From: Escherichia coli
GTDB taxonomy: Bacteria > Pseudomonadota > Gammaproteobacteria > Enterobacterales > Enterobacteriaceae
Assembly: GCF_048403405.1 (NCBI RefSeq)
Contig: NZ_CP183129.1
Length of the DNA: 64,000 nt
Strand: one strand, 5' to 3'
The position numbers are program-made. This document shows positions 9,001-18,000 of this stretch, piece by piece. Each line of letters begins with the position of its first letter. Position 1 is the first letter of the stretch.

Positions 9001-12000
9001 TGATACTGACCACCAGTGGTTTGATTAACATGTTGGTCGCGGCCCGTTGTTGTATACCGGCGGCGAAAATGATCTCCAGAGCATTCTGATCGATAACACG
9101 GGCCAGATTCGCGTTCAGATTTTCAATCTCATGTCCGGTCTGCAGGAAACTGCCGGCAAGCCATGTCATCTGCTCCTGAATCATTGCCAGAATTTTGACG
9201 CGATCTTCTTCAACCAGCGCTCCGGCAATTTTTCCTGATACAGCGGAGGCAATCATTCCCCCCAGAACACCGCCAACCACACGCCCTGTCAGTGCACCAA
9301 ATGGTCCCAGTGGACTGAACAATATCCCGCCCGCCACTGACCTGACAGCACCACCTGCCACACAGGAAGATGCCACGGCAAGATTCCTGATGAACTGCGC
9401 ACCGGAGATCCGTCCCCGCAACATTTTGATCATGTCAGGGCCGGTTGTGACAGCTACCAGTGCCAGAGATGTCACCAGCGAACCCTTCATCACTTTGTTC
9501 AGGGCACTGATATTTCCTGCACCGGTCCCCTTCTGAAGCGCCTGCCGGACAGTCGGGCTGGCCGTCGAAAAATCAATATGCTTCAGCATACCCTGAACAA
9601 CACTGAGCCGGTGAAGTTGCTGGGTTGTGACGTAGACAGCCAGTGTGCGGGTGAAGGTTTTTCCTGCCTGGACAGCAGCTGTCTGCAGGGCAGCATCGCG
9701 ATCGCCGGTGCTGAGCCAGAAGACCGATGCCGTCAGGGCAAAACTGATCCCTCCGGCCGCCAGACTGACAACCGACCCCTCGGCAATATCATAAGTGACC
9801 GATTCGATGGTCCCGAACCGGGTGATATTACGGGCCTGGGTATAAGTCAGATGTCCCCGACGAATCAGCCGGGACGCTTCTTCGGGATCGGTTACACCGG
9901 GTACTTTACCTTCGCGGATCTTATTCTTCATGGTTTCCACAGCGCCGGCATACTGATCACGGGGGACTTCCAGTTGCATGGGACCATGATTTCCCATGTA
10001 ACGATACTGTCCGTTCTGTCCGTCGAATGCCGCACCGACGCTACGGGCTGCAGTTGAACAATATTTCGTCTGGATTTCTGTTCCGCTGACCAGTCTGTCT
10101 GCTCCATTTCTGGCATTATTATCACCGAGGATCCGTGCGTTTTTCAGACGGACTCTGTCGACAATATGGTTTCCCCGTTCAGCGGCAAACCCATGTCCCT
10201 GCCCTCCGGAAGCAAACATTTTCTCATTTGTACTCCAGGTTTCCGGCAGTTTCATGAGAATCAGACCATTCGCCGTTGCATCGGAAATAAAACCGGTGTG
10301 AGAACGTTCATAAATGTCCTGACACAGTGTTTCTGTTTCGCGACAAAGAGAGGAGCAGTACCATTCCGGATCCGGCTTATGATTTTCCGGGGCATGATGT
10401 ACTTCTGTCAGCCCGCAGGAGGCACAGATACGAAGCTCATCCACGTGGTGGAATGATACAAAACGGCGGCCTTCTGAAAAGGGGTACCAGTCACCGCCGT
10501 CCAGGCAACGATCGAGAAAATCGTCATTCGCTTCCGGTGATAAATTCAGGCGGTTCCGGAAGAGGGTTTTCAGTTCATCAGGGGTAAATGACAGGCTCTC
10601 TCTCAGCTTTTCGTTGAAACCCGCCATGTTTCTTTCATACCAGGCATTGTCCAGTAGCCAGTTTCCGTCTGCCAGTTCAAATTCCCTCAGCTCTCCCCGG
10701 GAAATCCGTTGAGAAATGAGCGTCAGCCAGATGCGCTCCGTCAGTGAGTCAGGAAGGCTGTAATCGTTTTGCAAACTGGTCAGCCACGATTTACTGTTGA
10801 GCACCGGTTGTTCTTCCAGTGTCTGGCGGATGGCACAGGTCAGTTTTTTCAGCGCCTGGATCTGGCTGGCCGCCCATAGCAGCGTCACTAATGCAGCCAG
10901 CCAGTACAACAACCCGCCCCACCACATCAGTGACGGTGAAATATCGTACTGTAACGCGATCAATGGTGCGCATGCAGAACACGCCATAAGGCAAAAGGCA
11001 GTATAAAAACAGCAGTAATACCCGTTAATTTCCTTGCTGATATCTTCTGGTGTGATCCCGTTCTGCTGAATGTTTTTGATCTGCAGGGGAACAGCCAGCA
11101 GACCACCGGCGAGAGCGGTGGTCAGAATAAATTTCACAGAGTCAAAGGTGTGAGCCTCCAGCGCGATATGTTTACCATCAAGTCCCCACATGAAGCTGAT
11201 GATCATTCCGGCAATCGTCAGAAATACGCCTGCCAGCCAGCGAATATGGAACAACCGGGTTATGCGTTCGGTGATATAGCCAGCCAGTAAGGCCGGGCCG
11301 AACAGACACAGCAATATGAGCCCTGCCAGCGCAGACGCCGTGCTGATTAATGCTCTGAACAAAAGGCGAAGAATGGCAAATCCTGCGATCAGCAGGATCA
11401 GCGCGCCGACTATCTGTAACATAGTCACTCCGTGATGAATATCATGTTATTGTTAATGCGTAAGCTTCCGGGGAACTCATATTGACGCGTTTTTCAGGCG
11501 CGCGTCATCGGCGGCGCATAGTAAGCGACTCGTCAGAACCGTATTGATATTTACTGAGAGCTCAGATCAACTTTCCAGGGCAACAGATCGCGTACCCGGT
11601 TTGCCGGCCAGTCCTGGATATGTTCAATGACGTAACGCAGCCACTTTTCTGGCTCCACATTGTTCAGACGGCATGTGCCGATCAGCGAGTACAACACCGC
11701 CGCATGTTCACCACCGCTGTCGGAACCCGCGAACATCCAGTTTTTCCGGCCTACGGCCACTCCCCGTAAGGCGTTCTCTGCGATGTTGTTGTCGATTTCC
11801 ACCCAGCCATTACTGCAGTACACGTTCAGTGCATCCCACTGTTTCAGCAGGTATGCGAACGCTTTTGCCGTATCTGAGTGACGCGACAGTGTTTTCATCT
11901 GTTGCTGTATCCAGTCATACAGTGACTGCATCAGTGGCGCGGCTCTGGCTTTTCTTGCCGCCAGACGCTGTTCTGCTGAACAGCCCCGGACCTCTGCCTC

Positions 12001-15000: not shown

Positions 15001-18000
15001 CACGGCTATGGCAGCCCGTGGATCTTTACTGATTTTATACAGGTCGGCGAAGCCCCTGCGGGCATGGGCCCAGCATCCGGCCAGCGTGATCTCCGGCACT
15101 TTGTTTGCCAGAGTCCGGTAAGCTTTATGTCCGTCGACAACCAGCGTCCCGCCCCAGCCCTGAAGCCAGTTTTCAGGATACTCATGGCTACGTCCGGTCC
15201 GGCAGTCGAAGCACACAACTGACGGTCCCGTCCTTTCTCCACTGACGTATGCCCACAGATAACCGGAGCAGGATTTACCGCCTTTCTTCGTGTTCAGGAT
15301 CTTCAGGGTAGTCTCATCTGCATGCACCACCGGACGGTTTATCAACTCGCGATGGAGTAACGCCGCCAGGGGAGATAATGCGGCACCCGCCGCGCCAACC
15401 ATGTCAGCCATCGAACTGACGGGCAGCCCGACATCTGAACGGGCAAAGACCTGTTGCTGGCGATACAGAGGCAGGTGGTCACCGTATTTATTGATGATCA
15501 CCTGTGCGATGACTGATGGCTCAACGGCACTTTTCGGGAGGATATGTGCCGGCATTTCACCGCTGAACACCTTCTGGCAACAGGGACAACTGTATTGTGG
15601 ACGGACATAACGGTTCACCACAAAGTGAGCGGGAATATACTCCAGCTTTTCACTCACCGCATCGCGGATATAGTGCAGCGGCTCGTCACATTCAGGGCAA
15701 TGGTCAGTGTCCGGCTGGATAATTTTTTCCACCCGTGGAAGATGAACCGGTAAGGGTTTGCGTATCGGGCGTGAACGGGACGCTTTTTCGTCTTCTTCAG
15801 GGGATTGCGGGAGCAGTTTATCCAGATGTGCGGTAAGCGCGGCGATATCGGCATCAACATCCTCTTCGAACAGGGAGCGTTGCATACCAGCCAGCGTTCC
15901 ACATTTTTTTCCGAAGCGCTGTTGACGAACCAGTTTCAGCATTTCTTCCAGAAGCTGGATGCGCCGGCTTTTCTCCAGTAATTCCCGCTCTTTTTCGGCA
16001 TTCTCCGACATGACTTCTTGTACCATGGCAAGTGCCATAGCACGCAGTTTTTCGATGTCATTCGTGGTGTTGAGAGCGGAGATATCCATACAGGGGAGTA
16101 TACCACTCCAGATACGGATATTCATTATTTTTCACTGAGTTAGCAGTGTATTTTGCGTGTTTTCAGGGCGCAGTTCAGGTTCATTCTGCCAGACCCATTT
16201 CGTCAGGTCATGTCCCTTAACCTGCTGCCAGTCAACACCGGCAATCAGCCAGTTAAACTCGTCGGGAGTGAGGTGCCAGGCAGCGTCATTTGCACGTGGC
16301 CAGCGGAAGCTGCCTTTGTGCAGACGGCGGGTACACAACCACACCCCGTGTTTATCCCACCGGAGAACTTTGATACGCGAACGGGCTTTGTTAACAAAGA
16401 CGAAGGCGGCTCCCTCATGCCATGTCGACCGGAGTTCATCCTGTATATACTGCGTCAGTGAGTCGATGCCCCGGCGCATGTCAACAGGTTTAATTGCGAT
16501 GAAGACATTATCAGGACTGAGCATATTTGAGTGCCCTGAAGACATCGGTAAGTTGTGACGGCTGACAGCACATCCGTACTCCACCGGGAAGGAAGAGCGT
16601 GACTGGCTCATTCGTGACGGGCTGTGGTACATCAGCATGCAGTGGTGGCGCAATATGAACGGGAAGAACGGTCGGTTCATTTGCCCGGCGTTCAGCTTTT
16701 GCGACATCCTGCGGCCATTCGCGAAGTGATGTGAAGGGAATATCGTTGAGTTCACAGTATTGCTGACGTGTAAGACCACTGGCGCGCCAGGCAGCAACGT
16801 GCTGCCTTTTCTGTTCAATGGTCCATCGGGGTTTTGACATCGATTATCTCCGGTAAGTTGGTGAATGGATGTCGGTAATACTAACTGACCGAAGATCCCT
16901 GTGAAGATGACTTCCCCGTAACGACACGTTAATGCCAGCGAATGTGGCGTTGAAGATCCGTTGCGCCGGTCCGGGTCCCGGTCATGATGACCGGGACCAC
17001 AGAGAGGCGATGGTTCTGTCAGAAGGTCACATTCAGTGTGGCCTGACCGTTATACCCTTCAGCGCTGCTGCCGCTGACGCTGTGGGCATAACCGGCCTGA
17101 ACGCCCAGGGTGATATTTTCCCGGACACGGGCTTCCAGTCCGGCCTGCAGGTCCAGTGATGTGCCATTCTGTGAGGGAGAGAACGTCATCCCGCTGCCTG
17201 CAGTGGAGGTCCCCACACGCATATCACCCCGGGAGCTGAAGGTGCGGATAACGGAAGGCTGTACCCACCAGTTCACCGGCAGTTCACGCACACTGTGTTT
17301 TGCACTGTCACGCAGGGGGGCACGGGATGAGGTGCCTTCACCAAAGGTCATATCGTTGTGGCTGCCCAGACGGAAACCGGCACGCACATGTTGTGCACTG
17401 CCATGCCCGAACTTCACATAACCGGCGTTGTCCTTACCGTCATCCAGCGAAAGCCCCTGCCAGGTGTACTGCAGCCGTGGCTCCAGCATCAGGTTGTCAG
17501 TGATACTGAAGGGCAGACCGGTTTCCAGTGAGCCCAGCCAGCCCCGGCCCCGTGCGCGGAAGTCGTTATTGCCCGATGACGCTTTCATACTGTGGCGGGT
17601 TCCCTGTGCCACTATGTCAGCCCACAGGCCGGAGGAGGTGTGTGTCAGGTTCATATATCCGCCCAGGCTGCCGGCATCATCCCGGACCGTGCCGGCACGG
17701 GAGCCGTCATCATCCTTAACATCAACGGAAGAATGGCCTGCAGCACCATATATCCCTGCGGTCACAGACATACCGGCAACATCTGTTCTCAGCAGGTCAC
17801 CCTCCAGGCGGACGAAGCCATAGCTGCCGCTGCTTTCCGGCGTGGCCCCACGGGCAATACCGCCGTTGTTATCGTGACCGAGATGGCCGCCCTGAATGCT
17901 GAGACGGACGCTGTTATTTTCACCGTTTACACCGGTCTGATGGCTGCGTGAGCCTGCCAGAATCCGGTCATAGTCCATTGCCTGTGTCAGCATGGAGGCA

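Follow-up and report, generated by a model that had tools for sequence, protein, structure and literature searches.

The window analysed here is a 64 000-nucleotide stretch of contig NZ_CP183129.1 of Escherichia coli (RefSeq assembly GCF_048403405.1). Three genes lie on its minus strand in the order agn43, yeeR, irmA, as in the agn43–yeeR–irmA operon: agn43 (flu; 17019–20141, PGAP), the first gene of the operon, which is interrupted here; a yeeR-like gene (8906–11422), which is intact and encodes 838 residues; and irmA (8375–8830; 'IrmA family protein' in PGAP), the third operon gene according to PMC4807369. Strain C 237-04 encodes a yeeR-like protein with exactly this sequence (WP_001328678.1), and several RefSeq records name the product 'YeeR family protein'. 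Between flu and the yeeR-like gene the initial annotation had placed about 5.5 kb of IS66-family DNA, made up of an intact element and a different one whose tnpC is frameshifted. This was borne out by the NCBIfam models and by the element boundaries: 5468 bp of such DNA (11460–16927), together with an 8 bp duplicated target, separate the two genes. The right boundary, formerly set at 16900, was moved to 16927; at its other side the insert ends 37 bp upstream of the yeeR-like ATG. Without the insert, the spacer from the agn43 stop to the yeeR-like start measures 120 bp. The insert encodes tnpABC followed by tnpABC on one strand throughout, and all six genes scored above the curated cutoffs of the NCBIfam IS66 TnpA, TnpB or TnpC models.

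The outer element, ISEc49, has a native length of 2766 bp and occupies 11460–16927 (minus strand) in interrupted form. Its main body (14215–16927, minus) contains intact tnpA (16511–16840, minus; NF047593 TnpA, 50.8 bits, cutoff 28), tnpB (16132–16524, minus; NF033819 TnpB, 115.2 bits, cutoff 50) and tnpC (14524–16089, minus; 521 residues, NF033517 transposase, 441.6 bits, cutoff 180). The transposase is identical to WP_000354986.1, which PGAP names 'IS66-like element ISEc49 family transposase'. A detached right end of 61 bp (11460–11520, minus) consists of the terminal inverted repeat (11460–11486) and subterminal sequence, and the left inverted repeat (16901–16927) ends at 16927; the two repeats match at 19 of 27 positions, with GTAAGC at the right end and GTGTCG at the left end. 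The target duplication GTTAATGC is found at 11452–11459 and again at 16928–16935, and is present as a single copy in the empty site of strain B19695 (L004). ISEc49 was assigned to the IS66 family on the presence of tnpA, tnpB and tnpC (DDE transposase), imperfect inverted repeats and an 8 bp duplication. In its copies elsewhere the matching begins exactly at 11460, and the 2766 bp element also occurs at unrelated sites with 8 bp duplications of its own, such as GAATGAAG in a plasmid copy. Both element names, ISEc49 and ISCro1, follow RefSeq/PGAP product names rather than an ISfinder comparison.

The inner element, ISCro1, occupies 11521–14214 (minus strand; 2694 bp) and is bounded by inverted repeats at 11521–11546 and 14189–14214, which match at 17 of 26 positions and both start with GTAA. 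Its insertion point lies 53 bp inside the right end of ISEc49, where the target duplication GGCGCATA forms the last 8 bp of the detached right end (11513–11520) and recurs identically at 14215–14222; in a strain where ISEc49 occupies this site without interruption (L002), the 8-mer is present once. Two genes are intact: tnpA (13484–14161, minus; 225 residues, NF038385 IS66_access_TnpA, 295.8 bits, WP_001339397.1) and tnpB (13137–13484, minus; 115 residues, NF033819 IS66_TnpB, 128.9 bits, WP_000624622.1). Hundreds of ISCro1 copies elsewhere start and stop matching exactly at 11521 and 14214, and such copies have duplications of their own (CTTAAAAC, GGGCATCA and GGTCCACA). Some copies matched 9–19 bp past the element end (matches from query positions 203–213); a shared flank or target preference was considered for these and rejected, as GGGCATCA and GGTCCACA resemble GGCGCATA by chance and the matches were ranked by coverage. 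Genes for TnpA, TnpB and TnpC, inverted repeats and an 8 bp duplication place this element too in the IS66 family.

The two terminal-repeat motifs noticed initially, 60 bp apart at 11458 and 11520, are both real GTAAGC termini, although they start at 11460 and 11521 and are 61 bp apart; each motif occurs once in the 64 kb window, where none is expected by chance. The inverted repeats, with matches of 17/26 and 19/27, were too imperfect for a generic repeat finder to report; they were found by reading the ends and confirmed via the target duplications and the other copies. An Rfam scan of 8000–22000 gave no match inside the insert. A tRNA scan of the window found no tRNA, so that the attachment site of the island is not placeable from the window.

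The tnpC gene of ISCro1 is a pseudogene (11551–13117, minus) in two frames (12014–13117 and 11551–12351). Alignment with intact ISCro1 copies, which are 2699 bp in length, located a loss of 5 bp (CGCCC on the plus strand) between 12135 and 12136; apart from this gap, the sequences differ only by a substitution at 14198, within the left inverted repeat. Intact ISCro1 TnpC is a single 523-residue ORF, and the truncation falls after residue 327 of these 523. The broken product reads 327 residues in frame and continues with an out-of-frame tail of 40 residues, the final 194 residues lying in another frame, and the NCBIfam IS66 transposase profile is split across the two ORFs (positions 5–215 and 220–386; 254.6 and 204.3 bits). 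This copy is thus a family member, but a defective one that lacks the intact transposase needed for autonomy. It would be immobile on its own; it has kept both ends and could be mobilized in trans.

The flu–yeeR junction was compared across a sample of 5426 complete E. coli genomes, in which four stages were seen. An empty site with a single GTTAATGC and a contiguous agn43/yeeR junction was present in 2187 of the 5426, which agrees with the claim that flu and yeeR are directly adjacent in most strains. ISEc49 alone, at this site and with the same duplication, was found in 21 genomes; the nested arrangement with an intact ISCro1 in two (B19695 and FDAARGOS_1289); and the nested arrangement with the 5 bp deletion in 41, including CFT073 and every ATCC 25922 assembly. 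Over 8800–17100 the only difference between B19695 and the window is the 5 bp, and CFT073 (L010), which has the same nesting and the same deletion, differs from the window by two SNPs over these 8.3 kb.

These observations are best explained by ISCro1 nested within ISEc49, the structure having been built by three successive, ordinary mutational events; we give this reading a probability of roughly 93%. ISEc49 (2766 bp) would have inserted into the 120 bp agn43/yeeR spacer in the orientation of the operon, duplicating GTTAATGC. ISCro1 (2699 bp) would then have entered the non-coding right end of ISEc49, 53 bp from the tip, duplicating GGCGCATA and leaving the right inverted repeat of ISEc49 2.7 kb away from the ISEc49 genes. 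A deletion of 5 bp in the ISCro1 tnpC would finally have divided the DDE transposase, the break falling after residue 327. The order of the two insertions is suggested by the nesting and by the intermediates. The genomes with ISEc49 alone could also be explained by loss of ISCro1 through recombination with an uninterrupted ISEc49; the nesting itself could not. ISEc49 retains intact genes and both ends but is probably mobile only as a 5.5 kb unit.

The initial annotation had the two elements in tandem. On that reading two IS66 elements lie side by side in the spacer and 11460 marks the leftover end of a further element, as the gene order (tnpABC then tnpABC on one strand) and the two GTAAGC termini 61 bp apart might lead one to expect. 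A tandem arrangement would, however, leave neither element with matching 8 bp duplications, whereas the observed duplications are nested, GTTAATGC outside and GGCGCATA inside, both coinciding exactly with the boundaries that the inverted repeats set. Uninterrupted ISEc49 copies all have 11460–11520 contiguous with 14223 onward, and when ISCro1 and one of its two target copies are taken out (11521–14222), what remains is a 2766 bp element that other genomes contain contiguously and with 100% identity; no agn43/yeeR spacer sequence lies between the two elements. The tandem reading is thus extremely improbable. Of the two origins proposed for the closely spaced motifs, sequential insertion stands and a leftover end does not: the motif at 11460 belongs to ISEc49 as its true right end, cut off by ISCro1. 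Slightly less improbable, yet still very unlikely, is arrival of the 5.5 kb block in a single step as a composite mobile unit, that is, as an ISEc49 already containing ISCro1. The 5468 bp unit could move in principle, with intact tnpA, tnpB and tnpC of ISEc49 and both inverted repeats, and its outer ends bear a clean 8 bp duplication; against this, ISEc49 stands alone at the exact site with the same duplication in 21 genomes, and the junction between the ISEc49 end and ISCro1 was found with a different flank in no record, taking the best place per record (second copies in the same 43 genomes being possible). A junction with another flank was expected to cover ∼85% of the query and hence to rank above the 82% matches, and none was among the matches listed.

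That the broken tnpC frame reflects an error of sequencing or assembly, or programmed frameshifting, is scarcely conceivable. Indels confined to a single assembly do exist nearby, the yeeR-like gene of CP009072 having two extra A's that are absent in the window. The 5 bp deletion, in contrast, recurs identically in 41 independently assembled complete genomes from various laboratories and platforms, among them four of CFT073 and many of ATCC 25922, and is therefore no sequencing error; the frameshift reported initially is real. The lost bases moreover lie in non-repetitive sequence, with no homopolymer slip. Since intact ISCro1 copies encode one uninterrupted ORF, no programmed frameshift is needed.

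As to the consequences of the nested insert, Moriel et al. (2016; PMC4807369) showed by experiments in EC958 and CFT073 that agn43–yeeR–irmA is one co-transcribed operon, and that in CFT073 the insertion eliminates IrmA expression driven by the agn43a promoter; co-transcription is restated in PMC9431211. Published work on this very insertion thus lends experimental support to the suggestion that the insert affects read-through from flu. The polarity data come from CFT073, whose locus differs from that of the present strain by two SNPs over 8.3 kb. By extension from that experiment, the 5.5 kb insert would uncouple yeeR–irmA from the phase-variable, OxyR/Dam-controlled agn43 promoter, so that the irmA copy of this strain is probably no longer co-expressed with Ag43. 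An irmA promoter is reported for the yeeR–irmA spacer of strain 042 in PMC9431211, so that some irmA expression may persist here. A promoter and terminator scan gave five promoter-like sites against 3.5 expected and ten terminator-like sites against 4.9, figures which are mute on a block to read-through. We consider it unlikely that the nested insert is a selected, stabilized 'uncoupler' of yeeR–irmA from Ag43 in the CFT073/ATCC 25922 lineage (which we take to be ST73), with inactivation of the ISCro1 transposase helping fixation; such an insert might also add an outward promoter and so give phase-independent expression of yeeR–irmA.

Both elements were already catalogued, and the insertion and the silencing of the downstream genes were already published; the sole correction made here concerns their arrangement, which is nested rather than tandem. 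The importance beyond annotation is limited: CFT073, the reference UPEC genome, has the same insert, and the polar effect of this insert on yeeR–irmA is in print. The value lies mostly in the coordinates, nesting, duplications, 5 bp lesion and four-stage series, which should serve annotators and users of ATCC 25922 and CFT073; the locus also marks the lineage cleanly and is a textbook case of stepwise insertion of one IS into another. The insertion downstream of agn43a in CFT073 (PAI-CFT073-pheV; Moriel et al., 2016, mBio 7:e02046-15, PMC4807369) is the same insert at the same locus. In the retrieved passages of that paper it is termed 'an insertion sequence', and a search of the text gave neither 'IS66' nor 'transposase'; the later PMC9431211 has 'insertion sequences'. 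The nesting, element names, target duplications and intermediates given here are absent from the retrieved passages of both.

ISCro1 was first named in Citrobacter rodentium ICC168, which has 24 copies (PMC3072379). Compared with full-length RefSeq 'ISCro1 family' copies, the present one is 99.7–99.8% identical, with the same termini, tnpA and tnpB proteins and 8 bp duplications; it differs in the 5 bp tnpC deletion, the left-repeat substitution at 14198 and in having another IS as host. The reconstructed ISEc49 is 100% identical to uninterrupted copies over 2766 bp and is distinguished by the ISCro1 that splits it 53 bp from the right tip. In E. coli ST131, ISCro1 lies upstream of afaA and lowers transcription of neighbouring genes (PMC8764528). 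The two cases are alike in that ISCro1 stands beside an adhesin operon; in ST131 it sits in a promoter region and affects the adhesin genes themselves, whereas the present insert follows the adhesin gene and affects the genes at the distal end of the operon.

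Over 10500–18000 the window is 100% identical to complete E. coli genomes of the ATCC 25922 / CFT073 type. Genes were placed using the RefSeq annotation of the equivalent stretch together with the ORF list. On the minus strand the order is agn43 (17019–20141), an ISEc49-family tnpA (16511–16840), tnpB (16132–16524) and tnpC (14524–16089), a second IS66-type tnpA (13484–14161) and tnpB (13137–13484), a frameshifted tnpC (11551–13117), the yeeR-like gene (8906–11422) and irmA (8375–8830). The IS66-family DNA noticed between the yeeR-like gene and agn43 in the initial annotation, two elements with one frameshifted tnpC, was confirmed by this placement and by NCBIfam. 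All six IS proteins exceed the curated cut-offs of the NCBIfam IS66 models; for the broken tnpC the match to the transposase profile is divided between profile positions 5–215 and 220–386. The insert has the same orientation as the operon, starts 91 bp past the agn43 stop codon and ends 37 bp ahead of the yeeR-like ATG (with one duplication copy counted at either side); the ribosome-binding site and ORF of the yeeR-like gene are both intact.

The junctions were read directly and two GTAAGC-type termini were located, one starting at 11460 and the other at 11521. The inner element, 2694 bp long, runs from 11521 to 14214; its terminal inverted repeats show a 17/26 match, and identical 8-mers GGCGCATA flank it (11513–11520 and 14215–14222). 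The outer element runs from 11460 to 16927 and has inverted repeats with a 19/27 match; it measures 5468 bp (2766 bp after removal of the inner element and one duplication copy), and its flanking 8-mers, also identical, are GTTAATGC (11452–11459 and 16928–16935). The two target-duplication pairs, which it had been proposed to look for, are nested, so that ISCro1 lies inside ISEc49 and the tandem arrangement originally described does not hold; the limits proposed with it (11458–16900) missed the left end by a few bases and fell 27 bases short of the right end. No further ISCro1 or ISEc49 terminus occurs anywhere in the 64 kb window.

The names ISEc49 and ISCro1 were taken from RefSeq product names. 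Both elements show what defines the IS66 family: a set of three genes, GTAA-type inverted repeats that match imperfectly, and target duplications of 8 bp. The reconstructed 2766-bp outer element is found uninterrupted and 100% identical in other E. coli genomes under the name ISEc49, and also at sites unrelated to this one, for example on conjugative plasmids, where the 8-bp duplication differs (GAATGAAG); matches to other ISEc49 copies start exactly at 11460. The inner element, extended by 100 bp at both ends for the search, matched hundreds of copies named ISCro1, with 11521 and 14214 as the limits of the matches. Given the reconstructed element, these ISCro1 limits and the empty site in other genomes, the two ends spaced by 61 bp are real, but the stretch between them (11460–11520), initially read as a sign of sequential insertions or a leftover end, is the right end of ISEc49 itself, severed by ISCro1. 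Without ISCro1, the right non-coding end of ISEc49 measures 362 nt; it carries a motif of ∼19 nt (GAAGTACTGA..GGG) three times at 33-bp spacing (14303–14387), and a strongly structured stretch lies just past the tnpC stop (14440–14530; −46.5 kcal/mol, z = −5.0).

Intact ISCro1 copies are 2699 bp long, each with its own 8-bp duplication, and encode a TnpC of 523 residues. The window copy departs from these at two points: CGCCC (plus strand) is missing after 12135, and a single base is substituted in the left inverted repeat, at 14198. Its TnpC consists of residues 1–327 followed by a 40-residue out-of-frame tail, the last 194 residues being in another frame. Two observations rule out a sequencing error as the cause: the five lost bases do not form a homopolymer, and 41 assemblies made independently share the deletion. 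A programmed frameshift is likewise rejected, as intact copies encode TnpC in a single ORF. The frameshift is thus a real mutation. The copy is predicted to be non-autonomous, and mobilisation in trans would be possible because both ends are retained. In a separate ISCro1 copy (locus L005 of the genomes compared, NZ_CP074982.1 1743434–1746734) the two halves of the target duplication are not quite identical (TTTTGTTA and TCTTGTTA), which suggests that a point mutation followed the insertion or that ISCro1 copies recombined with each other.

The flu–yeeR junction was compared, as had been recommended, across a collection of 5426 genomes, using as the empty-site query the window minus the whole insert and one GTTAATGC. 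The empty site is contiguous in 2187 of the 5426 (99.4–99.9% identity), and a single GTTAATGC there was confirmed in one genome, strain B19695. ISEc49 alone, at exactly this site with the same duplication and unbroken across the ISCro1 target, occurs in 21 genomes; the nested insert has an intact ISCro1 in two (B19695 and FDAARGOS_1289) and the tnpC deletion in 41, among them every assembly of ATCC 25922 and four of CFT073. All four stages are therefore represented. Over 8800–17100 B19695 differs from the window by the five bases only, and CFT073 differs by two SNPs over 8.3 kb. Among the matches listed (best place per genome record) the ISEc49/ISCro1 block was never beside other flanks, giving no sign of its moving as a unit. 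B19695 (NZ_CP196120.1; compared loci L004 and L007) contains two agn43-yeeR-irmA clusters, one with an empty junction and the other with the nested insert, its ISCro1 still intact.

The insert is genuine, but it is an ordinary feature for which an explanation already exists: its presence, position and polar effect have been published for CFT073. By RT-PCR agn43-yeeR-irmA is one OxyR-repressed transcription unit, and in CFT073 a constitutive agn43b promoter yielded IrmA and a constitutive agn43a promoter none, which Moriel et al. ascribed to an insertion downstream of agn43a (mBio 2016, PMC4807369). A 2022 paper repeats this result, describes IS disruption of flu-yeeR as common and reports that in strain 042 irmA has a promoter of its own (PMC9431211). 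Since the CFT073 agn43a locus is that of the window, the early suggestion that the insert affects flu read-through has been tested and supported by these experiments. From the near-identity to CFT073 we infer a polar effect on yeeR-irmA in the window's strain; some residual irmA expression may occur, because strain 042 has its separate promoter. What is added here is descriptive: the nested order, the exact coordinates with both target duplications, the tnpC lesion and the four-stage series across genomes.

An IS102/IsrC small RNA lies directly upstream of agn43 (20166–20371, minus strand; full-length Rfam match, 259.7 bits), as expected for a CP4-44-type module. ARAGORN found no tRNA gene in 1–64000, which places the tRNA attachment site of the carrier island outside the window. 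In the agn43/yeeR spacer, ∼20 nt past the agn43 stop, a very stable hairpin (16974–16998, within 16960–17021, minus strand; −34.1 kcal/mol, z = −5.5) without a following T-run might act as an RNA-stability or partial-termination element within the operon. The yeeR-like ORF of the window is intact (838 residues, identical to WP_001328678.1). RefSeq flags that of the 2014 ATCC 25922 assembly CP009072 (NZ_CP009072.1, locus L001) as frameshifted because it has an additional A at each of window positions 9567 and 10455; the two sequences also differ over 8300–11500 by four substitutions, three inside yeeR, and the frameshift in CP009072 probably stems from assembly errors.
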